From: an uncultured Oscillospiraceae bacterium
GTDB taxonomy: Bacteria; Bacillota; Clostridia; UBA1381; UBA9506
DNA: 64,000 nt
Reading direction: 5' to 3'
Assembly: GCA_964447945.1 (NCBI GenBank)
Contig: CAYUUO010000001.1
Location: 35,687 to 99,686 of the forward strand
The position numbers and the translations under genes are program-made. The notes under the pieces are model-generated. The model was not told where the DNA came from. It was given only the letters and a program-made list of their open reading frames with translations, and did no database searches. Below, one piece after another: positions 17,831 to 43,952 of this stretch (position 1 is its first letter; each line of letters starts with the position of its first letter).

Positions 17831-18931
17831 TTATGAACAATCAGACAAAAGCTGATACTCATTACACATCAGCAAAAAGGCGCCGACACCAATGAGCATA
17901 TTCGTTTCAACGGGACGGTTTACATAGAATTTATAATCTCCCAAACAGGTACCGATACAGATGCGGGGCACAGATAAATAGGTTTCGCCGTCTGTTTCAA
18001 CCATTTGAATCAGGCCCTCAAACCCCTTGTCTGCGGCAGCCTTATAGCTGCTGTCCAGCCAGCCGAGGCGAACCGCCTTAGAAAGAGCGTAGGTATAAAG
18101 CGCAGAACAGGAGGATTCCAGCCAATTATCCGGGCGTGCTCCCTGATCGACAACCTGATACCACAGGCCGGTTTGCGGTTCCTGATATGTGGCCAGTGCC
18201 TTCAGCAGGCTGACGGCAACATCGATAAATTTCTTGCGTGACGGATGCTCTGTAGGCAGATATTCGGCAATATCCACGGCGGCCACGGCGTACCAGCCCA
18301 TGGCGCGTCCCCAGAAAACAGCGGAAAGTCCGGTTTCCGGATGGCTCCACGGTGCCGTTTTAGACTGATCCCATGCATGATATAAAAGACCGGTTTTATC
18401 ATCACGCATGTGCTCCCACATCAGCGTCATTTGTCTGCAAGCAATATCAATCAGCTCTTCGTCATGAAAGCGGAGCGCATAGCGGACAAGCATAGGGGAG
18501 GCCATATAAAAGCCGTCCAGCCACATTTGATTTGTGTGATGGAGCATATGCCAAAAACCGCCGTCCGGAGTCAGCTTCCAGTTTTTAAGATTGCGGATAA
18601 AAACATCCAGGGGCTTTTTATAGCGTTCGTCTCCGGTTGTTTCATATAAGTCAAACAACAGAACACCGGCCATCATGCCGTCCAGCTCGTAGTCGCGGTA
18701 GTTAACAACGGTGCCGTCGGGCGTTATCAGGCTGTCAACCCAATCCCTGATATATTGGGCATAAGCTTGCTTCCGGGTAGAATGGAAGGTTCGCTCAAAG
18801 CCGGATAAAAGAACCCCCTGGTGGTAGTGAAAGCGACCCCGCGGCGGAAGATCAGGCGCAGGGATTTTTTTCATAATGCTGTCGCAGCACAGCGCTGCGT
18901 AATCAACAGGTTTTTTATTGGTTATTTGCAC
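17831..18931 (-). CDS. GH105-type unsaturated uronyl hydrolase (YteR/YesR-like, Glyco_hydro_88 superfamily)
   Basis: It has a GTG start with the RBS aggagga 8 nt upstream. The motifs RFHYHQGVLLSG, NQMWLDGFYMASP and WGRAMGWYAVA match the YteR-type family. I see no signal peptide, so it is probably cytoplasmic. Confidence 0.8.
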   Translation of the reverse strand: MQITNKKPVDYAALCCDSIMKKIPAPDLPPRGRFHYHQGVLLSGFERTFHSTRKQAYAQYIRDWVDSLITPDGTVVNYRDYELDGMMAGVLLFDLYETTGDERYKKPLDVFIRNLKNWKLTPDGGFWHMLHHTNQMWLDGFYMASPMLVRYALRFHDEELIDIACRQMTLMWEHMRDDKTGLLYHAWDQSKTAPWSHPETGLSAVFWGRAMGWYAVAAVDIAEYLPTEHPSRKKFIDVAVSLLKALATYQEPQTGLWYQVVDQGARPDNWLESSCSALYTYALSKAVRLGWLDSSYKAAADKGFEGLIQMVETDGETYLSVPRICIGTCLGDYKFYVNRPVETNMLIGVGAFLLMCNEYQLLSDCS

Positions 18932-18966
18932 TTCAATTTCCTCCTGATGCTCTTTATGCTGATTTT

Positions 18967-18995
18967 ATTATACACAAGGGTGGGGATGCGGACAA
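18967..18995 (-). promoter_or_regulatory. Sigma-70-type promoter for the GH105 gene (TTGTCC-17-TATAAT)
   Basis: On the minus strand the -35 hexamer is at 18995-18990 and the -10 hexamer at 18972-18967. It lies about 35 nt upstream of the GTG start. Confidence 0.55.
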
Positions 18996-19043
18996 GAGTC
19001 ATTTTTTTATCCTACAGTCTTTTTATTATTAAAATACTGACCG

Positions 19044-19072
19044 TTGACGTGTCAGAACCATTGTGGTATGAT
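19044..19072 (+). promoter_or_regulatory. Orphan sigma-70-type promoter on the plus strand (TTGACG-17-TGgTATGAT)
   Basis: The -35 hexamer is at 19044-19049, the spacer is 17 nt, and the extended -10 is at 19064-19072. It diverges from the GH105 promoter. There is no plus-strand gene downstream for more than 2.7 kb. Confidence 0.5.
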
Positions 19073-19096
19073 TTGCCGCACTAAATTAATGTCGTG

Positions 19097-19176: not shown

Positions 19177-19270
19177 TCAGTAGACATTCAATTAGGTAGT
19201 ATACATAGATCAAAAAGGGTTATTCTGCGACCTTTTGTGTGGCTTTAGTCCTGCAGCATGCGTCTGCGGC

Positions 19271-19377: not shown

Positions 19378-21603
19378 TTATTTATTTGCACTCTTAAACT
19401 GCCCCGGCGTTACGCCCTCTAAGCCTTTGAAGGCGGCGATAAAGCCGTTGCTGTTGGTAAAGCCCACATTGGTGGCGATTTCCTTCACACTCAGATTGGT
19501 TTGCAGCAAGAGTTCCTTGGCAACGGCCACCCGGTACTTTTGAATATAGGTCGACAGCGTTTCGCCGGTTTCCTGCTTGAAAACTCTGGAAATATACTGA
19601 GGCGTCTTATTCATTTTATATCCGATTTCCGCCACGGATAGGTTCACGTTCTGATAGCTGTCCTTGATAATCTCCATAATCCGGCCGCTGATTTTAAAGC
19701 TGGCGGCCTTGTCGGAAAAATAGGTACACAGCAGCACGGCAGATTCCTTGATGTTTTCCCTGGAGGCATCCAGCGTTTGCGCGTCGGACAAATTGTCCAT
19801 CAGCTGATTCCGCAGTTCCGGCAGCGTGATGCCCTCTGAGAGGCGGAGGAGAGCCGTCACCAAATCGTAAATCAGCATGGTAGCGGCGTCGGCGGAAATG
19901 CAGCGCGCCAGATTTTTATCAAAAATTGCATCAATATATTGCTTGGCCTGCTCCGGATCACCGCTTGTGATGGCGTTGGTGATTTTGGTTTCATCCGTTG
20001 CAGAATAGCTGTACCGCGGATCAAGGGCGTCGATATCGTCAAAGGACAGAATATCCGTTTTTCCGAACATGAGCTGGTGCCGCAGCACGGTCATACATTC
20101 GTCATGGGCGTGGCTCAGCTCATAAGCACTGCTATGACTTCGGCTCAGGGATACAACGGTTTCAATATAGGCATATTCCGCCAGCTTGTCCCGGGTGTCC
20201 TTTAAAATATGTTTCAGATTTTCGTCTGTTGACTCGTCAGTTTTAATAATAAAGTAAACATCCTTATCCACAGAGCAGTCATAGGCCTCGTAAGCACACA
20301 ACAGCGTGTCCTGGGCCACGTTGCGGATGACAAACAGAACGCTTTCAATCGGCGGCTGATCACCCACGTAGTCGTTATCGGGAAACAGGCCGCTGTAATC
20401 GGATACGGTAAACATCGCCACACGGATATACGGCTTGTCGAACAGAATGTGATTTCGGGTCAGCAGTGACTCAGAACAGGCATTTTGGGGAATGTGGCCT
20501 GTCAGCAACCGCTTGAGCACCATGTTCTGCGTCAGGTTTTCGTTTTTAGTCTCCAGCTGATCCCGCTCCCGTATCAGGCTCTGGATGCTGCTGGTGATAT
20601 AGGCAAAATCGTTTTGCTCCCGCCCCTTCTTTTTATCAAACAGTGAGAGAATTGCCTGCATGGGTGTGTAGTTCTTTCGAGCCAGATAATAGGCCAGCAG
20701 GAAGCACAGCACAATACCGACGATGTTGGTCGTCAAAATGATGTTGCTCAAAGCGTTCATTTGGCTCCAATAGTTGCTGTAGGGGACAAAAAATACATAT
20801 TTCCAGCTGGTATAGCGCGAATCGGCAATCAGGACAATATACCGCTCGCCGGTTTTGCGGTCGGTGTAGGCGGCGGGATCGCCGGTAAGCGAAAAGCCCT
20901 CCACGGGGAAACCTTGATTTTTAAACAAAATATCCTCATTGCTTTGATAAATTGTCAGATTGTTTTTGGTGATATAATCGTGCTTTTCGGCCCAGGAGGC
21001 AGACAGCCGGGACATCAGCACCACGGTGTAGGCTTCACCGGCAGCCGTCCGAGCGCTCCGAACGCAAAATATAAAGGGCTGATAGATGGAATCGCGATAC
21101 ATCGCATAGTCTGCGTAAAAGGAAAAGGCGTCCTGCCGGGAAATCATATATTTCCATTCTTCGGCAGACAGATTGCCCTGGGCATGGTAGGTGTTATAGG
21201 CCAGCTCCGGTGACATGAGACTGTCAGCCGAGAGCAGGCGGCTTCGTTCCGGAAAATAAATATAAAACCGATCCACAATACCGGAAATGGCAGCCAGCCG
21301 GTTAATCTCCTGCACCTGCGGCCGGAAGTGATACAAGTGGATATCCTCCGGCGCAGCGTCCGGCATGCTGTCAAACAAAGACGCAGATACGATGGTCTGG
21401 GCGCATTGATTCAGAATGTTCAGATTCGCGTCGATGGCCCGGGCAGTCTGAACGGCGGAATCGCTCTGCATATCTGTCAGCATTTTTTTAAAGGTATTTT
21501 TATAGACAATAAAGGAAAGATTGCAAAGAAAAATGGCGACAAGGGAGATGAGGCAATAGGACAAAAGCCATTTGTATTTAACGGTCAGGGTGTTTTTGAT
21601 CAT
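19378..21603 (-). CDS. Transmembrane AraC-family one-component regulator (two TM helices flanking a ~260-aa extracytoplasmic domain, with a C-terminal AraC HTH)
   Basis: The RBS aaagga precedes the ATG. TM1 is LLSYCLISLVAIFLCNLSFIV and TM2 is IILTTNIVGIVLCFLLAYYLA. The C-terminus has YISRVFKQETGETLSTYIQKYRVAVAKELL...GFIAAFKGLEGVTPGQF. I see no receiver or kinase motifs. Confidence 0.8.
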   Translation of the reverse strand: MIKNTLTVKYKWLLSYCLISLVAIFLCNLSFIVYKNTFKKMLTDMQSDSAVQTARAIDANLNILNQCAQTIVSASLFDSMPDAAPEDIHLYHFRPQVQEINRLAAISGIVDRFYIYFPERSRLLSADSLMSPELAYNTYHAQGNLSAEEWKYMISRQDAFSFYADYAMYRDSIYQPFIFCVRSARTAAGEAYTVVLMSRLSASWAEKHDYITKNNLTIYQSNEDILFKNQGFPVEGFSLTGDPAAYTDRKTGERYIVLIADSRYTSWKYVFFVPYSNYWSQMNALSNIILTTNIVGIVLCFLLAYYLARKNYTPMQAILSLFDKKKGREQNDFAYITSSIQSLIRERDQLETKNENLTQNMVLKRLLTGHIPQNACSESLLTRNHILFDKPYIRVAMFTVSDYSGLFPDNDYVGDQPPIESVLFVIRNVAQDTLLCAYEAYDCSVDKDVYFIIKTDESTDENLKHILKDTRDKLAEYAYIETVVSLSRSHSSAYELSHAHDECMTVLRHQLMFGKTDILSFDDIDALDPRYSYSATDETKITNAITSGDPEQAKQYIDAIFDKNLARCISADAATMLIYDLVTALLRLSEGITLPELRNQLMDNLSDAQTLDASRENIKESAVLLCTYFSDKAASFKISGRIMEIIKDSYQNVNLSVAEIGYKMNKTPQYISRVFKQETGETLSTYIQKYRVAVAKELLLQTNLSVKEIATNVGFTNSNGFIAAFKGLEGVTPGQFKSANK

Positions 21604-21964: not shown

Positions 21965-23539
21965 ATGAACAGAGTATGGAGACATATCGCCCTGGCTGCT
22001 GCATTGACGCTGTGTCTGTCCGGCTGCGGCGGCAAAACGTCAAACAAGGCTACAGGCGGAGAGCTGACAGCACCACAGTTGGGCGATACCTACCCGGTCA
22101 AGACGGAGGAAACTCTGACCATGTGGGCCGATGCACCGGTACACGCGTCCTACGCCAGCTATAAAGACCAGCCCTTTTATCAGGATCTGATGAAAAACAC
22201 CGGCATCAATGTGGACTTCCGGTTCCCGCCCCAGGGACAGGGTCAGGAGGCCTTTAACCTGCTGATTGCCTCCGGCAACCTGCCAGACGTGATTTTGTAT
22301 CACTGGATTCATGCTTCCGGCGGGCCGCAGAAGTTTTTAGACGAAAAATATATCATCCCGCTGAATGATGTGTTTAAAGCCTACAGTCCCAATATTACAA
22401 AGTATCTGGCCGAACATCCCGACGCCGACCGCATGATTAAAACAGACAACGGACAGTATTACTGCTATCCCTTCCTGCGCGGCGATGACTGGCTAACCGT
22501 TTACTCAGGCCCCGTTGTGCGGCAGGATCTTCTGGAAAAATTCAATATTCAGGAGCCTGTTACCTTAGACGGCTGGCACGCCATGCTGACAACCTTTAAG
22601 GATAACGGCGTGAAAATTCCGCTGACGCTTGCCAACAGCAGTTATACGCTGGCTAGCGGTGTGAACGGCTATTTTAACTTTTACATAGACGGCAGTAACG
22701 TGAAATACGGCCCGATTGAGGAGAGCTGGAAGGATTATATCAACGTTATGAATCGGTGGTATAACGAGGGACTGATTGATAAAGACTACGGCAGTCTGGA
22801 CAGCACCGTACTGAACCAGAAAATGGCCTCCGGTGACGTGGGCGCTACCTTGGGAAGCGGCAGTCAAATCGGCACATGGATGTCCTCCGGTACTAAAAAT
22901 GATCCGGCTTACAATTTAAAGGGTATTAAGTATCCGGTTCCCCAGGCGGGAATGCAGCCGGAATTTGGTCAGAAGGATAATATTTATCCCGGCTACGGCT
23001 GTGCCGCCATCACTACCAGCTGCAAAAATCTTGAACTGGCGGCCAAATTCCTGGATTATTTCTATACGGAGGAAGGGCAGCTGTTTTCCAACTTCGGTAC
23101 AGAAGGCGTCAGCTATGAAATGAAGGACGGCCAGCCCGTCTTTACCCAGGCGGTCTTTGATGATAACGGCACGGCGGCCAACATCGGCAAATACGCCTGG
23201 AGCTATTCCACAACCCTGTCCATTCAGGACAGAAGAATGTATGAGCAGCGTCTGTCCTGGGATCAGCAGAAAAAGGCCATTGATGTTTGGAATCAGACTA
23301 ACATGGCAAGCCATCTCATCCCGCCGGTGCTGCCGAACAGCGAGGAGGTTTCCGTTATGGCGGACATTACCTCGCAGCTGAGTACTTACATGGAGGAGTT
23401 TTTCTACTCATCCGTCTGCGCCAAGGAGCCGCTGAGCGACGAGGCCTTCCAGGCTTATGTGGAGAAGGTTAAGGCCCTGGGCGTCGATCAAGTTATTTCG
23501 ATTTATGAAACGGCCATAGGACGGTATAATCAACGGTAA
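21965..23539 (+). CDS. ABC transporter extracellular solute-binding lipoprotein (LplA/YtcQ-like, family 1)
   Basis: The RBS aaaggaaag precedes the ATG at 21965, and the lipoprotein signal has the lipobox LCLSGC. The ~525-aa size and the position upstream of two sugar permeases are typical of LplA-type oligosaccharide binders. Confidence 0.85.
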   Translation: MNRVWRHIALAAALTLCLSGCGGKTSNKATGGELTAPQLGDTYPVKTEETLTMWADAPVHASYASYKDQPFYQDLMKNTGINVDFRFPPQGQGQEAFNLLIASGNLPDVILYHWIHASGGPQKFLDEKYIIPLNDVFKAYSPNITKYLAEHPDADRMIKTDNGQYYCYPFLRGDDWLTVYSGPVVRQDLLEKFNIQEPVTLDGWHAMLTTFKDNGVKIPLTLANSSYTLASGVNGYFNFYIDGSNVKYGPIEESWKDYINVMNRWYNEGLIDKDYGSLDSTVLNQKMASGDVGATLGSGSQIGTWMSSGTKNDPAYNLKGIKYPVPQAGMQPEFGQKDNIYPGYGCAAITTSCKNLELAAKFLDYFYTEEGQLFSNFGTEGVSYEMKDGQPVFTQAVFDDNGTAANIGKYAWSYSTTLSIQDRRMYEQRLSWDQQKKAIDVWNQTNMASHLIPPVLPNSEEVSVMADITSQLSTYMEEFFYSSVCAKEPLSDEAFQAYVEKVKALGVDQVISIYETAIGRYNQR

Positions 23540-23593: not shown

Positions 23594-23639
23594 GCAATTG
23601 TCAGACTTTCGGAAATCAGGCGAAGAAAGGATTCTTTTT

Positions 23640-24587
23640 ATGAAACTTGCGGCAACGGCGCCCGGTACACATAAGGAAAGCTACCTTCGTGCACTGGGTA
23701 AAAACATTGTTAAACATAAATATGCATATCTGATGATGCTGCCTGTTATGGCTTTTTACATCATCTTTCATTACGCTCCCATGTACGGCGCGATAATCGC
23801 CTTTAAGGATTATTCGCCGACTATGGGTATTCTGGGCAGCCCTTGGGTGGGGTTTAAGCACTTCATCAGCTTTTTCACGGGGATGTATTTTACGCGTCTG
23901 CTGCGCAACACGCTGCTGATCAGCTTTTATGGTCTGCTGTTCGGGTTCACAGCACCGATTTTGTTTGCTCTGCTCTTAAACGAGCTCCGCAGCAATCGGT
24001 ATAAGCGGGTATTGCAAACAGTTTCCTACTTTCCCCACTTTATATCCATGGTTGTTATCTGCGGCTTGATTAAAACCTTTACCCTGTCAGACGGCATTAT
24101 TAATGACCTGATTGTTCTGCTGGGCGGCGAGCGCAGCTCTCTTCTGCAAAAGCCGGAGCTGTTCCGTCCCATATTCATTATCAGCGGCATCTGGCAGAAT
24201 TTAGGCTGGGACTCGGTGATTTATCTGGCGGCGCTGGCCGGCATCGACACCCAGCTATATGAGGCCTGTGAGGTGGACGGCGGCCGAAAATTCGCCAAAA
24301 TGTGGCATATCACGCTGCCGGGTATTATGCCGACAATTGTGATTATGTTCATTATGCGAATCGGCCAGCTTTTAAATGTAGGCTATGAAAAAATTATCCT
24401 GCTGTATAATCCGTTTACCTATGAAACCGCGGATGTTATCACAAGTTTTGTATATCGAAAGGGCCTTTTGGAGCTGAACTGGAGCTACTCCACAGCCGTG
24501 GGGCTGTTTAACTCGGTGGTTAACTTTATTTTTCTGATTGCAGTGAACGGCATCAGCCGGAAACTAAACGATGTAAGTCTTTGGTAG
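23640..24587 (+). CDS. ABC sugar transporter permease (LplB/YteP-like)
   Basis: The RBS aaagga precedes the ATG at 23640. The protein has multiple TM segments and an EAA loop (EACEVDGGRKFAKMWHITLPGIMP). Confidence 0.85.
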   Translation: MKLAATAPGTHKESYLRALGKNIVKHKYAYLMMLPVMAFYIIFHYAPMYGAIIAFKDYSPTMGILGSPWVGFKHFISFFTGMYFTRLLRNTLLISFYGLLFGFTAPILFALLLNELRSNRYKRVLQTVSYFPHFISMVVICGLIKTFTLSDGIINDLIVLLGGERSSLLQKPELFRPIFIISGIWQNLGWDSVIYLAALAGIDTQLYEACEVDGGRKFAKMWHITLPGIMPTIVIMFIMRIGQLLNVGYEKIILLYNPFTYETADVITSFVYRKGLLELNWSYSTAVGLFNSVVNFIFLIAVNGISRKLNDVSLW

Positions 24588-24600: not shown

Positions 24601-25473
24601 ATGAAAGACAACAGAACTTTTGGCGAGAAACTTTTTGACTGGGGCAACGTACTGCTCATGACAATCATTCTGATCCTGACCTTTTATCCCCTGTATCATG
24701 TGGTCATGGCCTCCTTCAGCGACCCGGATCTGGTGGTGGGACATTCCGGCCTGCTGCTCTATCCGCTGTCACCCAATATTAAGGCCTATAAGGCAGTGTT
24801 TACCTACCGGATGATTACCCGCAGCTTTCAGAACACCCTGTTTATTATTGTGGTGGCGCTGTCGCTCAACATGCTTCTGACCTGCTTCGGTGCCTATTTT
24901 TTGTCCAGAAAGGATATTATGCTCCGCGGGCCGCTGATGAAGCTGATTGTTGTGACGATGTACCTTTCCGGCGGTATGATTCCTTTTTATCTGACTGTTA
25001 CCGGGTTGGGACTGGACAACACGCTGTTTTCGGTGATTCTGCCCTTTGCAGTCAACACCTTTAACCTGATTATTATGCGGACCAATTTTGCGGAGATTCC
25101 CGACAGCCTGCTGGAGGCGGCGGAGTTGGAGGGAGCCAACGACTTTACCATTCTGTTTAAAATCGTCATTCCCGTTTCCAAGGCCACTATGGCCGTTGTG
25201 GCGCTCTACTATTTGGTGCAGCACTGGAATGCTTGGTTCTACGCTTCTATCTTCATCGACAAGCGCGAACTGATGCCCTTCCAGGTGATTCTGCGGGAAA
25301 TTCTGATTCAGAATTCCACCGACACCATGAAAAGCGCCGGGGATACGGAAAACATGTATGAGGTGATTAAATACGCGGTCATTGTCGTGGGAACCATTCC
25401 GATTTTAATTGTTTATCCCTTCCTTCAGAAATATTTTGTCAAGGGTGTTATGATTGGTTCGGTGAAGGGATAA
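24601..25473 (+). CDS. ABC sugar transporter permease (LplC/YtcP-like)
   Basis: The RBS ggggaggg precedes the ATG. The EAA loop is EAAELEGANDFTILFKIVIPVS. Confidence 0.85.
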   Translation: MKDNRTFGEKLFDWGNVLLMTIILILTFYPLYHVVMASFSDPDLVVGHSGLLLYPLSPNIKAYKAVFTYRMITRSFQNTLFIIVVALSLNMLLTCFGAYFLSRKDIMLRGPLMKLIVVTMYLSGGMIPFYLTVTGLGLDNTLFSVILPFAVNTFNLIIMRTNFAEIPDSLLEAAELEGANDFTILFKIVIPVSKATMAVVALYYLVQHWNAWFYASIFIDKRELMPFQVILREILIQNSTDTMKSAGDTENMYEVIKYAVIVVGTIPILIVYPFLQKYFVKGVMIGSVKG

Positions 25474-37234: not shown

Positions 37235-40200
37235 ATGAAAAAATATCTTTCCCTGTTCTTTCTTGCACTATGGCTTTGCGTACAAGTACCGGTGAGCGCC
37301 CAGAGCGGGGCGCTCACTGCAAAAGGCGGCTTTACCAGCCGCCTTTTATCCCGTTCGGGCTGTACTTTTCAAGCCGATATCAGCAATCCTGCCGGCGGCG
37401 AAGCAACGCTGCTGCTGATTTTTGCCAGCTACGCGGGCAGCCGTTTGCAGCAGGCGGAGGTGCGCACAATAACGGTGAACGGAACGGCAACGGCGGTTTC
37501 GGAAACGGGTGTGCCGGCTGACGCGGATACTACGCGGCTTAGTGCCTTTTTGCTGGATGATCTCACCGCGGTATCGCCCTTGTGCCGGGATGATGGCGTT
37601 TTTACGGACTATGAGCCGATTACAAATGACTACGGCAAAAGCAATTTGGTCACCGAAACAGCTGCGGCAACAGAAGCCGACCGGGCGGCCTTTACTTTGT
37701 TGCCGACACTGTCCTCCGGTGCCGATCAGGCAGTTGTCAACGGTCTGGGTGTTTTGGGCCTATTTCCCGAGGGCGGCCCCGGCCGGATTTACTGTAAGAT
37801 GGAAAAGCGTCTTGGCGCCACGGCAGTGCGCTATGAGCAATTCCGCACCCTTCGCGTGATTGCGCCGGACGGCGAGATTGTTTGCTATTATGATTTTTCA
37901 GAGTCGGCCGACAGCTTAGAAGAGCTGATTTTCACAGTGCCGTCAGGCCCGGCCGGTATCTGGACGGTGTCCTACACCGGCGGACAGAGCACCGGGGATC
38001 TGCTCACGGTGGGTCTGCCGCCGACTTGTGAGGCCTGGGGTGTCCGTGGCGAAATGAAGCTGGTATTCCCCACGGGACGGGCGGCCTCCACCTGGTATAC
38101 CTATGTGCCCCCAACCTCAACGTCCTGCGAAATTGAGACCGGCGGCTACAGCGGTGGCATTCAGCTGTATTTGCCTGCGCAGGATGCGGGGCAGGTGAGC
38201 CACGTACCAACAGCCGCCGAGGAGGAAGCGGCTGCGGCGGCAGGAGAGCCTCTGACTGAGGTGGCGCTGAAGGCCCAGCTTGTATGGGGCGAGGCAGCGG
38301 CAGATGGCCGATGCCGTTTGGATAAGCAGGATTCAACACAATATGGGCGATACTTTGATTATCGCCTTTCCGGATATACGCCGGACAGCGTTTGGAGAAT
38401 TGAAGTATCCGGCGGTGCATCGGTGGGCATGAGCAGCCTGTTGTTTGCAACGGGCATCCCTGGCCTTTTATGTCCAAGCGAGGCATCGGCACGGCTCCTT
38501 GCCGGCGGTACGGCCAGAAGCCGGGACGGCCGGCTGTTGGGCGGCGCTTATCAGGCGCAGGTGCGGGACGCCATGCTGCAGCACAAGGATGACGATTTAT
38601 CCGTACAGTTGTCGTTTCCCACATCCATTCCGGCAGAAATCAGTCCGGAGGACTACGACACAGAGGCGCTGCTTTATGGCCGGTACGGTGGATTGACGAC
38701 GCTGCTGCCCGGCCTTGAGAAGCAAAAGCTGGATTCTGAAAGCCTGTATTACGGCGCTTTTCCCGACGCCAACGATTTAAGCAATGAACAGGAAATTGAG
38801 AATTTTTGCTACGGAGGCCGATATGCCATGCATGCCACGGCGGCTTTGGCCGCGGTGGCCGGGGTGCCTGCAAAGCTGAACCCGGGCTATCATAACGAGG
38901 CGCTGGTCACCCGCAGTATGTTGGCATCCTTCTGTCATCTGGCGGCATTGGCGCCGGATTATCTGCTGCGGGAGAAAATGACGCCCCGGGGGAATTTCTA
39001 CCCCATGACCCATGTATTTTTTGTCTATCCCTCGCTGGCTGAGGCCTACGGCTTGCTCAAGGATCAGATCAGCCCGTCAGAGTCTGTTTTGTGGCGGCGC
39101 GGCCTGCTTCTGCTGGGGGATAAGCTGGCTAACTATATATCATCAGAGACCAACCAGTGGAGTGAAATCATTTACGGACATCTGCTGGTTTACCGGGCAA
39201 CCGGCGAGGAGCGGTTTCTCCGATATTTCGAGCGGGCGGCAGAGGCCATCACCCATGATAACCTGCATTGCAATGGCTCCATGGGTCAGCACAGCGCCGG
39301 ATATTATCTGGAGGAGCGGGCGCCCAGTGGCTCTTATCAGGAGCTGTCACTGCACAATATTGCGGCGGCCTATTTGATATATCGGGCAATGCCGGAGGCA
39401 AACAGCTCTCTTACAGCCGCTCTTTATGACTCCATCCGGCGAGCAGCTGTTTACGAAAGCCTGTATTGGATTCCGAACGCGGCGGGGCAGCCGGTTTCGC
39501 CCACCTCCATGAATCTGCGGGCGCCTACAGGGATGATGTCCAACTGTGGCTATCCCGGTATGTTTCTGGTGGCATTGGCAGTTCCGGAGGCCAATGGACT
39601 TTTATCCCTGTTGCCCTACAGTGCAGAAAATTACGGCTATGCCACCACAATGTCCCATGTCGCCCTGCATAATCCGGCAGTAGCGGAGCAGGTGATTCTC
39701 TGGGGTCTCGGTCAGCAGGGTACGGTTCCCTACGGTCTCAGCGGACAATGGACGCCACGTCTCTATGAGGGTTATGCCCTGACAGAGGGGATTACAGAAA
39801 CCGTAACGCCGCCGGTTCGCACCCATGCCGGTGTGTGGGATTTAGACGGTATGCTGGCGATTAAGAAGGACGGCTGGTATCTCCTGACCCATTATGCTGC
39901 GCCGGCAACCGGGGGCTCTCTGCGCAGCGGCCTCCCTGCTGCCGTTTGGCGGGAAAGCTTTGGTGCGGCTGTTTTGTCCATGCATATTTCAACGGACGCG
40001 CCGGATTACGGTCAGGCGGCATATAGCTGCTTTACGGCGGAAAAGGCAGACGGTACTGTCTGTCGCACAGCGCTGGAAAACGGTACTCTGACAGCCCGGA
40101 CGGACAGCGGCTATCAGATTACCCAGCCGCTGGAGGGGATTGGTACGGTGTGCTATACGGTAGAGATTGTTGACGAAACCCGGATGACAGTGACTGTTAC

Positions 40201-40459
40201 GGCAGATATAACAGCGGAGGATGTAACCGGCGCCTACGTGCGTCTGCCGGTCTATGAAAGCGGCGCCACCGTTTCCGGCAGTGCCGGTGTTCTGCATTAC
40301 GCCGCCGGTTCCGGCAGCCTGGAGATTCAGGCAGAGGGCGCGGCCATGGGCGATACTTTATATATGGCCAGCAGCGGCGGTCATGCCGTCAGACCCTTGG
40401 ACGTCCCGGTGACAGACGGTGTTCCCACGGTCATATCCTTTGTAGTGCCGGGGGCGTAA
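37235..40459 (+). CDS. Secreted paralog of 33783..37223 lacking SLH repeats; unrecognised family
   Basis: The RBS aaaggaga precedes the ATG, and the signal peptide is MKKYLSLFFLALWLCVQVPVSAQS. Shared blocks include VCYYDFSE, TNQWSE.I.GHL..Y.ATGE.RFL.Y.ER, GSYQELS.H and FF.YPSLA..Y.LLKD.I.P. Confidence 0.7.
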   Translation: MKKYLSLFFLALWLCVQVPVSAQSGALTAKGGFTSRLLSRSGCTFQADISNPAGGEATLLLIFASYAGSRLQQAEVRTITVNGTATAVSETGVPADADTTRLSAFLLDDLTAVSPLCRDDGVFTDYEPITNDYGKSNLVTETAAATEADRAAFTLLPTLSSGADQAVVNGLGVLGLFPEGGPGRIYCKMEKRLGATAVRYEQFRTLRVIAPDGEIVCYYDFSESADSLEELIFTVPSGPAGIWTVSYTGGQSTGDLLTVGLPPTCEAWGVRGEMKLVFPTGRAASTWYTYVPPTSTSCEIETGGYSGGIQLYLPAQDAGQVSHVPTAAEEEAAAAAGEPLTEVALKAQLVWGEAAADGRCRLDKQDSTQYGRYFDYRLSGYTPDSVWRIEVSGGASVGMSSLLFATGIPGLLCPSEASARLLAGGTARSRDGRLLGGAYQAQVRDAMLQHKDDDLSVQLSFPTSIPAEISPEDYDTEALLYGRYGGLTTLLPGLEKQKLDSESLYYGAFPDANDLSNEQEIENFCYGGRYAMHATAALAAVAGVPAKLNPGYHNEALVTRSMLASFCHLAALAPDYLLREKMTPRGNFYPMTHVFFVYPSLAEAYGLLKDQISPSESVLWRRGLLLLGDKLANYISSETNQWSEIIYGHLLVYRATGEERFLRYFERAAEAITHDNLHCNGSMGQHSAGYYLEERAPSGSYQELSLHNIAAAYLIYRAMPEANSSLTAALYDSIRRAAVYESLYWIPNAAGQPVSPTSMNLRAPTGMMSNCGYPGMFLVALAVPEANGLLSLLPYSAENYGYATTMSHVALHNPAVAEQVILWGLGQQGTVPYGLSGQWTPRLYEGYALTEGITETVTPPVRTHAGVWDLDGMLAIKKDGWYLLTHYAAPATGGSLRSGLPAAVWRESFGAAVLSMHISTDAPDYGQAAYSCFTAEKADGTVCRTALENGTLTARTDSGYQITQPLEGIGTVCYTVEIVDETRMTVTVTADITAEDVTGAYVRLPVYESGATVSGSAGVLHYAAGSGSLEIQAEGAAMGDTLYMASSGGHAVRPLDVPVTDGVPTVISFVVPGA

Positions 40460-40522
40460 GACAATAATAAAACAAAAAAGGCAATAATAAAACAAAAAAA
40501 GGCAATAATAAAACAAAATAAT
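40460..40522 (+). repeat. Three tandem 21-bp AT-rich direct repeats
   Basis: The units are GACAATAATAAAACAAAAAAG (40460-40480), GCAATAATAAAACAAAAAAAG (40481-40501) and GCAATAATAAAACAAAATAAT (40502-40522). They end 4 bp before a -35 hexamer. Confidence 0.9.
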
Positions 40523-40611: not shown

Positions 40612-41829
40612 ATGACCTATGAGGAAGCATACAAGCTGTGCGGTGAAAAGGCACGGCTGCATATGAAAAGCATGAACGGGATTCCGTTTGAACTGGGGGA
40701 ATGCCGCGACGGCGATTATTACAAGCATGTTAAGGACAAAGAAAAGTCGGCTCTTTCGGGACGCTGGAGCTGGGTGACCTCCTTTGTAACCGGCATGGCG
40801 CCTCTTTTGTTCCAGACGGACGGGGACAGCCGTGCACTCCGCTGGGCCAACCAGTTTGCTGATGATTATCATGACAAGGTGTTCCGGCCCTACACCCAGA
40901 CTATGCATGATCTTGGCTTTTTATATCTGCCCTACAGCGTACATATGTATCAGCTGACCGGTGACAGGGGTCACCGCGACACGGCACTCCAGGCGGCCAA
41001 TGAGCTGGCTAAGCGCTTTGATTTAAACGGGCGGTATATTGAGGCTTGGTCTGAAATGAATACCTTTGAAAAGGACGGGCGCATGATTATTGATTCCTGC
41101 ATGAATCTGCCGCTGCTGTTCTGGGCCTGGAAGGAAACAGGCCATACCTTTTATCATGATGTGGCGGCGGCTCATCTGGAAACGGCCATGCGCGTTCTGG
41201 TGCGCGAGGATGCTTCCGTTTGTCACGCCTGGCGTCTTGATCCGGCCACCGGCAAGCCAACGGAGGAAGTCAACTCCTGCGGTTTTGCCAACGGCTCCCA
41301 CTGGGCGCGGGGCACGGGCTGGATGGTTTTTGGACTGGCAATCGCTTATGAATATACGAAAAATGAAACCTATCTGGATACGGCTGTTAAAGTTGCAGAA
41401 AAATATCTGGATTCTCTGGAGGACAGCCCGGTTCCTGTTTGGGATTTCCGCCTGCCCGCCGACCAGCCGGCCAAAATCTGCGGCAATGTGCCGGGGCTGG
41501 GCGCCGATTGGGATGAAAGTTTGCTCGAAAATAAAAAATATAATGTGGATACCTCCGCGGCTGCCATTATGGCCTGCGGTCTGCAGACAATTGAGCGGTA
41601 TCGGCCGTGCGACCGCTTCCATCAGCATGTAGAGGCGGCGCTGTCTGTCCTCAGCAATGAATATCTGAATACCGATCCGACGGTACCCGGTATGCTCAAA
41701 CGCTGCAACGGCCGCAACGCCTTTAGCGTTTACGGCGATTATTATTACATGCTGGCGCTGGCTATGCGCTTATATGACGTCAGAACCTGCTGGGGTTGTT
41801 CCGAGGACGCCCCGGCAGTCAACCAATAA
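40612..41829 (+). CDS. GH88 unsaturated glucuronyl hydrolase
   Basis: The RBS gaggagg sits 8 nt upstream of the ATG at 40612. The family motifs are MHDLGFLYLPYS, IIDSCMNLPLLFWAWKETG and GSHWARGTGWMVFGLAIAY. I see no signal peptide. Confidence 0.85.
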   Translation: MTYEEAYKLCGEKARLHMKSMNGIPFELGECRDGDYYKHVKDKEKSALSGRWSWVTSFVTGMAPLLFQTDGDSRALRWANQFADDYHDKVFRPYTQTMHDLGFLYLPYSVHMYQLTGDRGHRDTALQAANELAKRFDLNGRYIEAWSEMNTFEKDGRMIIDSCMNLPLLFWAWKETGHTFYHDVAAAHLETAMRVLVREDASVCHAWRLDPATGKPTEEVNSCGFANGSHWARGTGWMVFGLAIAYEYTKNETYLDTAVKVAEKYLDSLEDSPVPVWDFRLPADQPAKICGNVPGLGADWDESLLENKKYNVDTSAAAIMACGLQTIERYRPCDRFHQHVEAALSVLSNEYLNTDPTVPGMLKRCNGRNAFSVYGDYYYMLALAMRLYDVRTCWGCSEDAPAVNQ

Positions 41830-41846
41830 CAACAGGGAGGCTTTCC

Positions 41847-43952
41847 ATGTTACAAAAGGAACAAAATTACGAGTTTAGAAAGCGGATGCTGGCTATACAT
41901 GAAAAGGATGTCCGGGATCCTGCGCTTTTGCCCCAGGCAGATGAATTTGTCATCGAGGACGGACTGTATGTGGTTGTGCCGGAAACAGCCAGCGACGTTA
42001 TCCTGACGGCAGGCCGGGATTTTATTGACTACCTTTTCACCTCCATGGGGATTTCCGCCATGCTGAAAAAGGGCAGTGCGCCTGCGGAAGCGAAAAAAAT
42101 CACGGTGGATCTGGCTGCCGATACCGGCGTCGATCTGTTAGATGCAGCTTCCTATAAGGGCTTTCGTATTGACGTTTTACAGTCGATTGCCATAAACGCC
42201 TTTGACGACCGGGGTGCGGCACAGGCTCTTTACTATCTTGAGGAGTGTATGACCCTGCGCCGTGCGCCCTTTATTCCGCAAAAAACGGTGACGCAAAAAC
42301 CCATGTTCTCACCGATGATGGTTCACTCCGGCTACGGTCTGGACGAATACCCCGACGAGCATCTGGCAGCCATTGCCCACGAGGGGCGTGACGCTATCCT
42401 GATTTTTGTCGAGGATGTGGACACAACGCCCTATGGCTATCTGGATTTTAACGAGCTGATTTACCGGGCGGCTAAATACGGCATCGACGTATATGCCTAC
42501 AGCTATTTGGAAAGTGACATGAGCCCGGAGGCTGAGGGCGCCGAGGCGTATTATGAAAAGCGCTACGGCCGGCTGTTTGAAAAGTGCCCAGGTCTTGCGG
42601 GCATCAGCCTGGTGGGAGAATCTGTGGGCTTTCCCAGTAAGGATCCGCATGTTACCCCCAGCCATAAAAGTGATCTCGACGCCGACGGTCTGCCCGTGGG
42701 TAAGCCCCGGGCCGGGTGGTGGCCCTGTGAGGACTATCCCCGCTGGCTGAATCTGGTTAAGGGCATTATTCGGAAGCATAAGCCAGATGCAGACATCATT
42801 TTCTGGACCTATAACTGGGGTCGCCAGCCTGCCGAGGCACGGCTCCGGCTGATTGAATCGCTGCCTACGGATATTAGCCTGATGGCGACCTTTGAGATGT
42901 TTGAAGGCTATTCCGTTGAGGACTGCCGCGAATTTATTGCGGACTATTCTCTGAAATTTGAAGGCCCCGGCTTTTACTTCCGGTCAGAGGCGGAGGCCGC
43001 GGCCAAACGGGGCATACGCCTATATGCTATGACCAATACCGGCGGCCTGACCTGGGATATCGGCGTTATTCCCTATGAGCCCATGCCCTATCAGTGGATG
43101 CGGCGCTACGCGGCCATGGCTGAGGCTCACGATCAATGGGGTCTTTGCGGCATTATGGAATCCCATCACTATGGCTTCTATCCGTCCTTTATCAGCAAGC
43201 TGTCCAAGTGGATTTTCAACGATTCGAAAACGCCTATGGAAACGCAGCTGCAAAGAGTGCTCGTCAGCGAATACGGCGAAACGCACGCGCCGGCGGTAGA
43301 TGAGGCGCTCAAGCTCTGGAGCGAGGCCATCCGGCACTATACCCCCACGGATAACGACCAGTACGGCGCTTTCCGCATCGGGCCGGGCTTTCCCTTTTCC
43401 TTTTTAATACCCGTGAAGAACCAGGAAGCGCCCTATGCCATGTTTGGGAATCGTATTTATCATTCTTATTACACCCACTGGTATTCTCATGAGGTTATGT
43501 TTGATAAGGGTACGCCTGTGGCTGTCCGCCTGGCGGCGGAGATCCGCTCCTTAGAGGTTATGCTGGATTATATGCAGCGCGGTGTGGATATTTTAGAAAA
43601 GCTGGATGGGAAAAACGACAGACTGCTGTATCTTGAAAATTTGGGACGGTATATCGTTTGCTGCATACAAACCGGTATTCACGCAAAAGAGTGGTTCAAG
43701 CTGCTCAGCCGCTTTAACAATGCGGAGACGAACAGTGAGGCGCTGGAGATTTTGGACAGTATGGAGGCGCTGCTGCAGCGGGAAATCAGCAATGCAGAGG
43801 CCGCCATTCCGCTGGCGGAACAGGATTCCCGATTGGGTTGGGAGCCCAGCATGGAATATATGGCGGACGCGGAGCATATCCGCTGGAAGATTCGGCAGCT
43901 TCATTATGTCATTAATACGGAAATTGCCGCGCAACGGCGGGCGGCGCATTAA
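41847..43952 (+). CDS. Cytoplasmic 701-aa protein of unknown function; possibly a glycoside hydrolase-like TIM-barrel enzyme
   Basis: The RBS agggagg precedes the ATG at 41847, and I see no signal peptide. The N-terminal stretch SYKGFRIDV...INAFDDRGAAQALYYLEE resembles the small N-domains of GH20/GH67/GH115-type enzymes, which is weak by-eye evidence only. Confidence 0.6.
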   Translation: MLQKEQNYEFRKRMLAIHEKDVRDPALLPQADEFVIEDGLYVVVPETASDVILTAGRDFIDYLFTSMGISAMLKKGSAPAEAKKITVDLAADTGVDLLDAASYKGFRIDVLQSIAINAFDDRGAAQALYYLEECMTLRRAPFIPQKTVTQKPMFSPMMVHSGYGLDEYPDEHLAAIAHEGRDAILIFVEDVDTTPYGYLDFNELIYRAAKYGIDVYAYSYLESDMSPEAEGAEAYYEKRYGRLFEKCPGLAGISLVGESVGFPSKDPHVTPSHKSDLDADGLPVGKPRAGWWPCEDYPRWLNLVKGIIRKHKPDADIIFWTYNWGRQPAEARLRLIESLPTDISLMATFEMFEGYSVEDCREFIADYSLKFEGPGFYFRSEAEAAAKRGIRLYAMTNTGGLTWDIGVIPYEPMPYQWMRRYAAMAEAHDQWGLCGIMESHHYGFYPSFISKLSKWIFNDSKTPMETQLQRVLVSEYGETHAPAVDEALKLWSEAIRHYTPTDNDQYGAFRIGPGFPFSFLIPVKNQEAPYAMFGNRIYHSYYTHWYSHEVMFDKGTPVAVRLAAEIRSLEVMLDYMQRGVDILEKLDGKNDRLLYLENLGRYIVCCIQTGIHAKEWFKLLSRFNNAETNSEALEILDSMEALLQREISNAEAAIPLAEQDSRLGWEPSMEYMADAEHIRWKIRQLHYVINTEIAAQRRAAH

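Follow-up and report, generated by a model that had tools for sequence, protein, structure and literature searches.

The window analysed here, 64,000 nucleotides of DNA from an uncultured Oscillospiraceae bacterium, contains a locus whose open reading frames, as named in a first-pass annotation, are all present at the coordinates then given. Two starts probably lie further downstream. The solute-binding protein (SBP) would begin at M51 (21965), where its sequence carries a lipobox, LSGC, and the 27967 reading frame at M16 (28012). The features of the locus and its upstream neighbour are:

18..12499, plus strand: upstream surface-enzyme cluster (PL35-like lyase, 31065-family paralog, Big_5 and LamG proteins), made up of the next four entries
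18-2354, plus strand: paralog of the 31065 family, preceding the PL35 gene
2369-6721, plus strand: PL35-like lyase with a CBM32-like F5/8 type C domain (matches PL35 GAGases; 8khv, 149 bits)
6774-9203, plus strand: Big_5 protein
9407-12499, plus strand: LamG protein
17526..17783, unstranded: inverted repeat, left arm, 258 nt (hairpin, GC-hairpin-rich core, second hairpin)
17831..18931, minus strand: cytoplasmic YteR-like GH105 unsaturated rhamnogalacturonyl/uronyl hydrolase (PF07470, 342 bits)
19378..21603, minus strand: membrane-spanning AraC-type regulator (HTH_18 and HTH_AraC)
21965..23539, plus strand: lipoprotein SBP of an LplABC-type oligosaccharide ABC importer (SBP_bac_1; listed ORF from 21815)
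23598..24587, plus strand: LplB-like ABC permease (BPD_transp_1)
24601..25473, plus strand: LplC-like ABC permease (BPD_transp_1)
25576..27879, plus strand: secreted 767-aa accessory protein, β-rich with a weak Big_5 Ig-like domain; signal peptide, no SLH
28012..31065, plus strand: the 27967 product, a secreted accessory protein (about 1017 aa) with an unassigned N-terminal domain, then Big_5 and Ig-like repeats and, at the C-terminus, three SLH (108 bits)
31065..33770, plus strand: secreted protein whose N-terminus bears a degenerate SLH triple (family profile against PDB), with about 700 β-rich aa besides
33783..37223, plus strand: X1, SLH-anchored candidate polysaccharide lyase (AF2 and Foldseek; family nameless in Pfam, NCBIfam and PDB searches)
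37235..40459, plus strand: X2, secreted X1 paralog without SLH (no Pfam match)
40458..40518, unstranded: 21-nt A-rich unit in three tandem copies between X2 and GH88 (TRF: period 21, 3.0 copies, 95% matches)
40612..41829, plus strand: cytoplasmic GH88 unsaturated glucuronyl hydrolase, 405 aa (PF07470; PDB 1vd5)
41847..43952, plus strand: cytoplasmic 701-aa candidate exo-glycosidase of a large nameless family (AF2 and Foldseek)
43961..44213, unstranded: inverted repeat, right arm

The trimming, regulatory and import genes are those that the first-pass annotation had described. Both unsaturated-uronate hydrolases are recovered by Pfam and PDB searches. The closest solved structure to the 17831-18931 product is YteR (1nc5), itself a GH105 (333 bits, E = 1.7e-98), and no signal peptide was found in this product. 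The 40612-41829 product matches PF07470 weakly (51 bits), yet is clearly a GH88, its closest solved relative being the UGL of Bacillus sp. GL1 (145 bits, E = 2e-41). The unsaturated substrates of GH88 and GH105 are known to arise only through lyase action. The regulator has an AraC HTH and is hydrophobic over residues of about 8-36 and again over 285-303, which makes it membrane-spanning, with an extracytoplasmic sensor region predicted to sit between the two segments. The importer is present as an SBP_bac_1 protein and two BPD_transp_1 permeases. In a related species the syntenic locus (L006-L008) reads AraC-SBP-permease-permease-758aa-1019aa-895aa-X1-X2-GH88, closing with GH88, and everything from AraC through GH88 is kept together as a unit at 29-91% identity. 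The SBP ortholog in L007/L008 (524 aa) is 78% identical, the 23598-24587 and 24601-25473 permeases are 89-91% and 87% identical to the relative's genes, and AraC orthologs are kept beside the importer in L007/L008/L010. The AraC-type regulator of a Paenibacillus locus (L011) is a remote match of about 20% identity that carries dCache_1 and GGDEF_2.

The five consecutive genes from 25576 to 40459 had been taken to encode secreted giants, three with SLH anchors. All five products have N-terminal signal-like hydrophobic segments, and the count of three is correct because SLH domains occur in the 27967 (C-terminal), 31065 (N-terminal) and 33783 (N-terminal) products. Pfam HMM searches of the giants, proposed as a check, yield SLH and Big_5 only, and neither Pfam nor NCBIfam finds a catalytic domain in any of them, nor in the 701-aa protein. 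When PDB is searched by sequence and by profile with X1/X2, with the 31065 family and with the 701-aa protein, only SLH domains come back. The 25576 product, a putative glycan-binding surface protein weakly similar to the 27967 product, has a Big_5 below cut-off as its sole Pfam match and is fast-evolving (29% identical to its ortholog, against 44-91% for neighbouring genes). The 27967 product is 52% identical to its ortholog, and Big_5 is present in 8 of 10 accessory proteins adjoining lyases. In the 31065 product Pfam finds one weak SLH match, and the family profile matches the SLH trimers 6bt4, 3pyw and 6cwc over residues 26-191 (E = 1e-18; 6bt4 E = 2e-18). This family is rare (10 homolog clusters found) and lies directly upstream of lyase genes, with the 18-2354 paralog before PL35 and homologs before PL8 in L017/L018/L022. 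No domains beyond Ig-like and SLH were recognised in these three giants, for which a role in binding or as scaffold is the more likely one. The proposal that the cleavage step is hidden among the unassigned giants narrows to X1 and X2, for which fold, residues and gene neighbourhood speak, while the other three carry no catalytic signature.

X1 and X2 are 35% identical over 985 aa (blastp E = 9e-161). By sequence, X1 matches SLH alone in Pfam, NCBIfam and PDB, with no significant link to any lyase family. At that level the claim that the locus lacks a recognisable depolymerase stands, but it gives way at the level of fold. X1 begins with a signal peptide and SLH, and its AF2 model (pLDDT 80, pTM 0.85) shows a pair of β-sandwiches, then an (α/α) toroid and, at the C-terminus, another β-sandwich. 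The suggested Foldseek search of this model brings the uronate-lyase fold to the top of the PDB matches. The top 47 are all PL33, PL15, PL35, PL8, PL17, PL12, PL21, PL39 or DS-epi1 (E 1.6e-10 to about 1e-6, probability 1.00, target-normalised TM 0.32-0.56 and about 0.5 for the leading PL33 and PL35 matches), and the earliest non-lyase match is a GH38 at TM 0.17. Query-normalised TM is about 0.35 with an RMSD of about 10 Å, and the model is poor at the candidate catalytic motif (pLDDT <50 for residues 536-560 of the 947-aa query). The X family numbers 267 representatives at E <= 1e-3, in Clostridia, Paenibacillus/Cohnella, Planctomycetes, Verrucomicrobia and Victivallales, hosts that are specialist glycan degraders. 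Members bearing a name are labelled hypothetical, those examined carry signal peptides, and Planctomycetes and Victivallales likewise have X genes in tandem pairs. From the model, X1 and X2 represent a candidate new lyase family, its newness judged against Pfam, NCBIfam and PDB.

The pattern N-Q…G…E…Y…Y is near-invariant in the X family. Among 85 diverse members, G550, E554 and Y562 are kept in all 85, N500, Y745, R420 and N409 in 84 and Q501 in 83. The candidate active-site residues are N699, Q700, G749, E753, Y761 and Y944 in X1, and X2 keeps the equivalent N640, Q641, G689, E693, Y701 and Y882. In hhalign comparisons of the family with lyases the probability is only 0.6-9%. A weak profile-profile alignment with five PL35/PL15 sequences (525 columns, P = 0.0037) puts the lyase motifs N-[NH]-W and P-D-G-x-x-x-E-G-x-x-Y under these residues, with the N-Q-W of X on the N-N-W of PL35 at the position of PL15 H311, and P-A-G-Y-F-x-E on the P-D-G-x-W-x-E of the catalytic-Tyr motif. 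The roles of the aligned positions are those described for PL33/12/15/17/21/39 (PMC11848413). As in PL33 (N238/Y291/Y470) and PL17 (Y258/Y450; PMC11848413), X has an invariant toroid Tyr about 60 residues past the amide pair and a second invariant Tyr in the β-domain. The best Foldseek matches, PL33 lyases (BtPL33HA, PDB 8R6Z/8R70-75) and PL12/15/17/21/35/39/8, have the toroid and β-sheet fold in common with X, and PL33-type lyases are also secreted and found beside GH88. X differs from PL33-type families in its 9-12% identity without a Pfam or PDB profile match, in N-Q-W for N-[NH]-W (Gln where PL35 has Asn and PL15 has His), in a 4-residue insertion ahead of Tyr and in two additional N-terminal β-sandwiches, to which X1 adds the SLH anchor. 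The HxHxD His/metal motif of the PL15/PL35 β-domain is missing in X.

X adjoins GH88 in three lineages: that of the window, another Clostridia MAG and Paenibacillus sp. cl123, where no further lyase lies within ±10 kb of X. In Paenibacillus locus L011 a two-component system, permeases and SBP are followed by GH88 directly upstream of X, the 10 scanned neighbours include no further lyase, and locus L010 contains X, AraC, an ABC importer and GH88. In three other lineages (L017/L018/L022) X adjoins PL8. For most X homologs (Planctomycetes, Verrucomicrobia, several Clostridia MAGs) there is no GH88 or GH105 within 10 kb. Fold, conserved residues and gene neighbourhood are three independent computational lines that support β-elimination by X1 and X2.

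The most serious alternative, though an unlikely one, is that the true depolymerase is the lyase already noted in the neighbouring cluster, and that all five giants are non-catalytic binding, S-layer or scaffold proteins with the toroid as a binding module. The PL35-like enzyme lies about 11 kb upstream, is recognisable by sequence, has the N…Y motif intact (N798 and Y852) and could alone explain GH88. No transporter or GH88 was found within its cluster (18..12499), which therefore plausibly shares the focal locus and may feed its importer. The missing HxHxD motif, the Gln at the lyase Asn/His position and the three giants with Ig-like and SLH domains only also suit a non-catalytic role. Against this, X is the sole candidate depolymerase beside GH88 and importer in L011 and L010, and N, Q, E, Y, Y and R are conserved almost without exception across phyla, which favours an enzyme over a binding module. 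To our knowledge, inactive toroid lyase folds serving as CBMs are not an established class.

It is also quite improbable that X1 and X2 perform another chemistry on the lyase fold, as a C5-epimerase or hydrolase, with unsaturated substrates coming from lyases elsewhere. Human dermatan-sulfate epimerase 1 (DS-epi1; 6HZN) is of the same fold class as X (Foldseek match no. 8, E = 1.2e-9) and has the Tyr-centred apparatus of PL33-type lyases, in keeping with the common fold and apparatus of epimerases and lyases (PMC11848413), and X, with Gln for Asn/His and no His dyad, departs from characterised lyases. However, PL17 likewise functions by a Tyr/Tyr pair without His (PMC11848413), the characterised secreted, wall-anchored bacterial enzymes with this toroid fold are lyases, and repeated GH88 and PL8 adjacency fits the making of unsaturated ends. 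DS-epi1 works in the eukaryotic Golgi as an epimerase and yields no β-elimination product, whereas X is secreted, bacterial and GH88-linked.

The 701-aa protein, previously listed as a cytoplasmic unknown, is indeed nameless in sequence libraries, but its fold resembles GH138/GH67 α-uronidases. The AF2 model (pLDDT 88.9, pTM 0.90) comprises an α/β domain at the N-terminus, then a (β/α)8 barrel and, at the C-terminus, a helical bundle, a three-part architecture common to the GH138 α-galacturonidase BP0997 (PDB 6HZE-G), the GH67/GH115 α-glucuronidases and GH84 (Foldseek E = 1e-17 to 1e-15, TM 0.43-0.56; GH138 6hzf E = 1.3e-17, GH67 1k9e E = 9e-17). The likeness is at fold level, without sequence or profile similarity or any PDB match by either, and the uronate-glycan link is in keeping with it. 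None of more than 2115 homologs has a Pfam domain or name. Homologs lie near X in L018/L022, while L006-L008, the syntenic locus, lacks the gene. The model suggests a candidate new hydrolase family, again as judged against Pfam, NCBIfam and PDB.

On balance we think it probable that the locus is a Gram-positive PUL of one uncultured gut bacterium of the Clostridia and would act on a non-sulfated uronic-acid polymer with X1 and X2 as its lyases. As first reported, no sulfatase, KduI or KduD is present among the scanned window ORFs of at least 150 aa. In the order of steps that we infer, the polymer would be captured at the cell wall by the secreted 25576, 27967 and 31065 products, some of them SLH-anchored, and cut by β-elimination by X1, SLH-anchored, and X2, released or loosely bound, through the (α/α)n-toroid and antiparallel β-sheet lyase fold. 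By analogy with PL33/PL12/PL17, Y761 of X1 may serve as acid/base, the N699-Q700 pair may neutralise the carboxylate and Y944 from the β-domain may complete the site. Unsaturated oligosaccharides would pass from the lipoprotein SBP through the two permeases, with expression under the control of the membrane AraC sensor. Cytoplasmic GH88 and GH105 would then strip the 4,5-unsaturated uronate off the non-reducing end, and the 701-aa enzyme may take off one more residue, which is probably a uronic acid in α-linkage or something similar. From the upstream PL35 cluster, this import and trimming machinery probably gains a lyase of a second specificity. The 'missing' cutting enzymes would then lie inside the locus, as two large surface proteins with a predicted lyase fold.

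Gram-positive surface-enzyme PULs reportedly include the Ruminococcaceae UCG-13 xanthan locus and the gellan/xanthan pathways of Bacillus/Paenibacillus sp. GL1 with UGL. The focal locus resembles these in its regulator, ABC importer with lipoprotein SBP, extracellular multi-domain depolymerases and cytoplasmic GH88, the last closest to the strain GL1 UGL. In those systems the depolymerases can be recognised by sequence as GH5, PL8 or PL33 and trimming is done by GH38/GH94/GH78 enzymes, whereas the focal locus has a nameless lyase-fold family, three nameless accessory proteins, a nameless GH138/GH67-like enzyme and both GH88 and GH105. The novelty lies in the candidate family. Gram-positive PULs with toroid lyases are already known, and the locus, put forward earlier as a candidate undescribed system, is no new kind of system.

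That the gene order is accidental, with GH105 and AraC, importer and giants, and GH88 and the 701-aa gene unrelated and the giants generic S-layer or adhesin proteins, is highly improbable: GH105 and AraC are read from the other strand, the 701-aa gene is missing from the relative's locus and further SLH giants occur in the window (57793-60609), but the AraC-to-GH88 block is conserved in a related species, L010 has a shorter form of it (X, AraC, importer, GH88), X and 701-aa homologs co-occur in L018/L022, and an inverted repeat brackets the whole unit. The arms of this repeat are 85% identical over 258 nt (blastn), occur as two copies only within the window, have no Rfam match and fold with an arm z-score of about -4.8. 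An independent Logan contig of the same organism stops 69 nt into the right arm (43961-44213).

The predicted structure of X1, the SLH-anchored product of 33783-37223, points to a lyase fold within the locus at 17831-43952 and provides a candidate partner lyase for its GH88 and GH105 enzymes. The ORF map agrees exactly with the coordinates of the first-pass annotation, and the gene content is that of a Gram-positive PUL, with an AraC regulator, SBP, two permeases, GH105, GH88 and candidate lyases within 26 kb. The hydrolase, regulator and importer genes are as follows.

17831-18931, minus strand: GH105 (PF07470, 342 bits; YteR 1nc5, E = 1.7e-98, full length)
19378-21603, minus strand: AraC HTH regulator (Pfam)
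21815-23539 as ORF, start moved to 21965, plus strand: SBP_bac_1 protein (Pfam)
23598-24587, plus strand: BPD_transp_1 permease (Pfam)
24601-25473, plus strand: BPD_transp_1 permease (Pfam)
40546/40612-41829, plus strand: GH88 (PF07470, 50.7 bits against a cut-off of 26.6)

Pfam and matches to solved structures bear out the two unsaturated-uronate hydrolases expected at first reading. The 17831-18931 product is assigned from its sequence as a YteR-like GH105, and the 40612-41829 product, whose best solved match in a PDB sequence search is Bacillus sp. GL1 UGL (1vd5, E = 2e-41; 2zzr, E = 2e-38), as a UGL-like GH88. The remaining conventional parts of the annotation are likewise upheld. The AraC regulator is membrane-spanning, as two hydrophobic segments flank a region of ~250 aa. 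The SBP, whose start is placed at 21965 because a lipoprotein signal follows an internal Met, forms with the two permeases the proposed LplABC-type importer. No sulfatase, KduI or KduD is present among the window ORFs scanned, as had been stated.

Searches of the five large secreted proteins encoded at 25576-40459 and of the 701-aa protein (41847-43952) in Pfam, NCBIfam and the PDB (phmmer) and with profiles returned SLH and Big_5 domains only. Pfam and NCBIfam gave no catalytic family for any of them, and PDB sequence and profile searches gave no catalytic relative of the X1/X2 pair (X2 being the product of 37235-40459), the 31065 family or the 701-aa protein. The earlier claim that the locus holds no recognisable depolymerase thus stands at the level of sequence, for Pfam, NCBIfam and the PDB, and fails at the level of fold, where the X1 model is lyase-like. 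That annotation had also called for a Pfam search and for structure prediction with Foldseek; the former matched no known catalytic family, and the latter gave a lyase fold for X1 and a GH138/GH67-like fold for the 701-aa protein.

The AF2 model of X1 minus its SLH region (pLDDT 80, pTM 0.85) comprises N-terminal β-sandwiches (~60-275), a helical toroid (~277-710) and a C-terminal β-sandwich (~728-946). This predicted succession of toroid and β-domain is that of the (α/α)n-toroid plus antiparallel β-sheet class (PL8/12/15/17/21/33/35/39). In a Foldseek search of the PDB the best 47 matches are all toroid-class lyases or an epimerase relative, at probability 1.00. PL33 BtPL33HA ranks first (E = 1.6e-10), and the others include DS-epimerase 1, PL15 Atu3025, PL35 GAGases, PL17, PL39, PL12, PL21 and PL8 chondroitin, hyaluronate and xanthan lyases; the first unrelated fold is a GH38 at TM 0.17. 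Identity to all of the matches is 9-12% and E-values are alike across PL families, so X is about equidistant from all of them. X2 is a paralogue of X1 (35% identity over 985 aa in an all-against-all blastp).

By sequence, family X falls within no toroid-class family known to Pfam, NCBIfam or the PDB. X1, X2 and 26 distant members have no Pfam or NCBIfam lyase match, with Hepar_II_III_C, DUF4962 and Lyase_8 among the Pfam models considered, and PDB searches for solved members with the X sequence and with 13-sequence and 85-sequence profiles found no lyase. An hhalign comparison of family X with the PL35 domain of the window was non-significant (probability 0.6-0.7%); a permissive local comparison of the X profile with a hand-assembled 5-sequence PL35/PL15 alignment covered 525 columns (probability 8.9%, P = 0.0037) and served motif correspondence only. 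Exhaustive profile searching recovered 267 representatives, 119 of them at E ≤ 1e-30, and a word-indexed search recovered only 12 homologue clusters, all from uncultured Clostridia. Species-representative genomes place relatives in gut MAGs of Clostridia/Oscillospiraceae, from ruminants and other hosts, and also in Paenibacillus, Phycisphaerales and other Planctomycetes, Verrucomicrobia and Victivallales. Named members in RefSeq and UniProt are all 'hypothetical protein', for example Cohnella nanjingensis WP_185671664.1, Paenibacillus sabuli WP_190915320.1 and P. agaridevorans WP_108995557.1. The core of the 26 distant members carries no Pfam domain; one of these proteins has a chondroitinase-ABC Lyase_N accessory domain and another a CBM_11. 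We found no characterised member or matching new PL family in the literature, PL44 being a β-helix alginate lyase. A kinship of X with the gellan lyase of Bacillus sp. GL1 (263 kDa) was weighed as well, and none of the best 150 of the 267 representatives is of that size.

The best explanation of these data, which we consider probable, is a surface-to-cytoplasm pathway. Accessory proteins would capture the polymer at the surface, and X1 and X2, on the strength of the model, would cleave it by β-elimination with the PL35 enzyme of the neighbouring cluster (18-12499) alongside. The products would be imported via the LplABC-type system, GH88 and GH105 would take off the unsaturated uronate, and the 701-aa enzyme would trim further. 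The neighbouring cluster holds the lyase recognised at first reading, encoded at 2369-6721. Its product matches the GAGases 8khv (149-153 bits), 8khw and 9o3q, carries a CBM32-like domain, and contains the motifs RSN798Y and PDGAWIEGVDY852W, which align with 8khv, 8khw, 9o3q and PL15 H311/Y365; homology and the N…Y motif together class it as PL35-like. This cluster contains neither transporter nor GH88, and it is most economical to suppose that the single importer and the GH88/GH105 trimming enzymes serve both clusters. It is unlikely that PL35 does all of the cutting and that the giants are non-catalytic. Such an arrangement would accord with the three giants that show only Ig-like and SLH domains, and accords poorly with the residue conservation in family X and with Paenibacillus sp. 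cl123 (L011), where a two-component system, two permeases, SBP and GH88 are followed by X and no lyase other than X occurs among ten scanned neighbours. The Paenibacillus X homologue (9965-13645, 1226 aa) is secreted and ends in a C-terminal dockerin-like repeat, DLNQDGRLDIADL, instead of SLH, which indicates that the surface-attachment modules of family X differ between lineages.

The AraC membrane regulator of the PL35 cluster appears split over two overlapping frames (12695-13390 and 13261-15111), one matching the N-terminal and the other the C-terminal portion of the 741-aa regulator; the gene is a frameshifted pseudogene, or else the assembly is in error. The stretch 15144-17495, which separates the two glycan clusters, encodes a PGA_cap (CapA-like) protein and an M14 carboxypeptidase. 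These two may have to do with poly-γ-glutamate metabolism and seem to have no connection with the locus.

The toroid lyases share a catalytic apparatus. In PL33, N238 is the carboxylate-stabilising Asn and Y291, 53 residues further on, the acid/base Tyr, with orthologues in PL12 (Y294), PL21 (Y257), PL15 (Y365), PL17 (Y258) and DS-epi1 (Y261); the β-domain of the fold class contributes a His and a Tyr, H444 and Y470 in PL33 and Y450 in PL17 (PMC11848413). HMMER alignment of the window PL35 to 8khv, 8khw, 9o3q and Atu3025 yielded the lyase motifs N-[NH]-W, P-D-G-x-x-x-E-G-x-x-Y-W and H-x-H-x-D-x-G-x-F. Across 85 diverse members of family X (query numbering), G550, E554 and Y562 are invariant (85/85 each), N500 and Y745 are retained in 84/85 and Q501 in 83/85, and N409 (84/85), R420 (84/85) and R623 (82/85) are also conserved. 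The weak hhalign alignment places the N-Q-W of X onto lyase N-N-W, with Q501 at the position of PL15 H311, and P-A-G-Y-F-x-E onto P-D-G-x-W-x-E, with G550 and E554 on the motif Gly and Glu. Y562 falls four residues beyond the lyase Tyr position, in a loop modelled at low pLDDT, and lies 61-62 residues from N500/Q501, compared with ~53-56 between Asn/His and the catalytic Tyr in the fold class. On this alignment family X differs from PL15 and PL35 in having Gln beside the Asn (N-Q-W), a Tyr shifted by four residues and no HxHxD. Neither this metal motif nor the β-domain His (PL33 H444, PL15 H531) has a counterpart in X, where the aligned region reads ...GGGP..LW, and Y745 may be the counterpart of PL17 Y450 / PL33 Y470. 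All motif residues are kept in X1 (N699, Q700, G749, E753, Y761, Y944) and in X2 (N640, Q641, G689, E693, Y701, Y882). From the weak alignment and the low-confidence loop model we read the site as diverged yet apparently intact and Tyr-centred. The presence of DS-epimerase 1 among the structural matches and the altered signature would also suit a lyase fold turned to other chemistry, e.g. epimerisation. With GH88 and PL8 encoded repeatedly beside X, we regard this as quite improbable.

Gene neighbourhoods are consistent with β-elimination by X1 and X2. In the syntenic locus of a related species (L006-L008) the AraC, SBP and two permease genes are followed, in this order, by genes for proteins of 758, 1019 (Big_5 and SLH), 895, 1144 (SLH; X1) and 1097 aa (X2), and GH88 closes the series. 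Identity to the window is 87-91% for the permeases, 78% for the SBP, 70% for X1, 66% for GH88, 54% for the 31065 product, 52% for the 27967 product and 44% for X2. The secreted 25576-27879 product, at 29% compared with 44-91% for its neighbours, seems to evolve fast, as a protein exposed at the surface might. Another Clostridia MAG (L010) has genes for ROK, AraC and a Big_5 protein alongside X, together with the same importer and a GH88-like gene. In three further MAGs (L017, L018, L022) a 31065-family gene precedes PL8, and a Big_5 gene stands between PL8 and X; L018 and L022 also encode a homologue of the 701-aa protein. In Planctomycetes and Victivallales (L012, 9845-15532; L014, L020, L024, L025) X is followed by a distant X paralogue, 21-22% identical to other X, so tandem pairs like X1/X2 recur across phyla. 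Planctomycete and Verrucomicrobia X loci contain LacI/AraC regulators, LamG, GH31 and a second X paralogue, with no GH88 or GH105, and no CAZyme neighbours were seen for the distant homologues P0007 and P0009. Since many other X loci also have no GH88/GH105 within 10 kb, the association of X with these hydrolases is recurrent and not universal. An accidental grouping of the genes is very hard to believe in the face of the synteny in L006-L008 and the reduced set of X, AraC, importer and GH88 in L010.

The first-pass annotation proposed that the giants hide a lyase. For X1, and for X2 as its paralogue, the predicted fold agrees; the 25576 and 27967 products show only Big_5/SLH, and the 31065 product an SLH triple followed by ~700 aa that match nothing. 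All five giants have signal-peptide-like N-termini. SLH anchoring normally involves a terminal set of three such domains on a secreted protein; three of the giants carry SLH domains, in agreement with the count in the annotation.

27967 product, C-terminus: three SLH, 108 bits
31065 product, N-terminus, residues 26-191: SLH, family profile against 6bt4 E = 2e-18, clear by family profile only
33783 product (X1), N-terminus: SLH, 79 bits, matching the SLH trimers 3pyw/6bt4

No SLH was found in the 25576 product or in X2. The 25576 and 27967 products have weak N-terminal similarity (blastp), and together with lyase-adjacent counterparts elsewhere they share Big_5 Ig-like domains only (8/10 scanned). 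The 31065 family is rare, with 10 clusters in a large database, and has a paralogue (blastp) in the PL35 cluster. In every case seen its gene lies directly upstream of a toroid-class lyase or X gene: 18-2354 before the PL35 gene at 2369, 31065 before X1 at 33783, and ~70-2440 before PL8 in L017/L018/L022. This placement suggests that the family may be a dedicated wall-anchored partner of surface lyases. Elsewhere in the window, two further ORFs on the minus strand encode large surface-type proteins, one at 57793-60609 with Big_2, Flg_new and three SLH domains and one of 1086 aa at 60735-63995 with no Pfam or NCBIfam match.

Clusters homologous to the 701-aa protein number >2115, the best 120 of them at 52-100% identity, and none has a Pfam domain or an informative name. 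Neither the sequence of the protein nor a 32-sequence profile found a PDB relative, Pfam and NCBIfam gave none, and its likeness to GH138, GH67 and GH115 is one of fold and not of sequence. In the model (pLDDT 88.9, pTM 0.90) a (β/α)8 barrel lies between an α/β domain at the N-terminus and a helical bundle at the C-terminus. Its best Foldseek match is GH138 α-galacturonidase (E = 1.3e-17, TM 0.54-0.56), followed by GH67 α-glucuronidase (E = 9e-17), GH84 and GH115. Invariant acidic residues (E258, E350, D404, E438) follow predicted barrel strands, and no signal peptide is present. We interpret the modelled protein as a cytoplasmic exo-glycosidase of a family without a name, which would most likely remove an α-linked uronic acid or similar residue and is a candidate for a new GH family. 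The gene is missing from the otherwise syntenic L006-L008 locus.

The lack of sulfatases argues for a non-sulfated polymer. A GL1-type GH88 would suit GlcA glycans, for instance GAG-like capsules without sulfate, gellan/sphingan or EPS of the xanthan type, and a YteR-type GH105 would suit RG-I-like ΔGalA-Rha ends. The locus had been put forward as an undescribed degradation system; its kind is known, being a Gram-positive PUL with wall-attached toroid lyases and cytoplasmic GH88/GH105, and what appears new lies in its protein families. One candidate family has a lyase fold with a changed catalytic signature, the other resembles GH138/GH67, and neither is named in any library searched (Pfam, NCBIfam, PDB). 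Tentatively, and as a possibility rather than an expectation, X1/X2 would constitute a PL family not yet in CAZy, the 701-aa protein a new GH family and the 31065 family a dedicated wall partner of lyases. Family X would then be a very divergent toroid plus β-sheet branch that relies on a Gln/Asn-Tyr-Tyr apparatus and lacks the His/metal motif. Its substrate would be a uronate polymer without an assigned lyase in these organisms, e.g. one of the acidic glycans from bacteria or plants, of gellan/sphingan type or other, that Planctomycetes and Paenibacillus break down with no lyase known, and the 701-aa family would be related by its modelled fold to α-uronidases.

GH88/GH105 without a recognisable partner lyase is a recurring gap in genome-based prediction of glycan diet in gut and soil bacteria. 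Family X, with ~270 clusters in five lineages, is a testable candidate for the missing lyase, and a second family, with >2000 members, resembles an α-uronidase-type glycosidase. If confirmed, both would enter CAZy as new families, make PULs in Firmicutes, Planctomycetes and Verrucomicrobia easier to predict, broaden the catalytic variation seen among toroid lyases and supply new tools for tailoring acidic polysaccharides; the general understanding of how such systems work would be unchanged.

A 258-nt inverted repeat exactly brackets the block from GH105 to the 701-aa gene, with arms at 17526-17783 and 43961-44213 that are 85% identical (91% over a 140-nt core). Each arm consists of a terminator-like hairpin, a GC-hairpin-rich core and a second hairpin (fold z = -4.8 to -6.6). 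There are two copies only within the window, no Rfam family matched, two core patterns had no exact match in JGI metagenomes, and the repeat is absent from the loci of relatives. The arms could encode a pair of sRNAs, represent a REP/MITE-like element or serve as a substrate for recombination. They do not mark an inverted locus; compared with the related species, inverted instead is the block at 44276-53013 (Fe-hydrogenase, NuoF-like, HATPase, NuoE-like, truB, ribF), which in L006 lies at 18597-23435 beside GH88. An independent assembly of the same organism (a Logan contig) breaks 69 nt into the right arm. Within the locus, a 21-nt A-rich unit (AAGGCAATAATAAAACAAAAA) is present in three tandem copies at 40458-40518, in the gap that separates the stop codon of X2 from the start of GH88, and a promoter-like site lies just downstream at 40527-40555.
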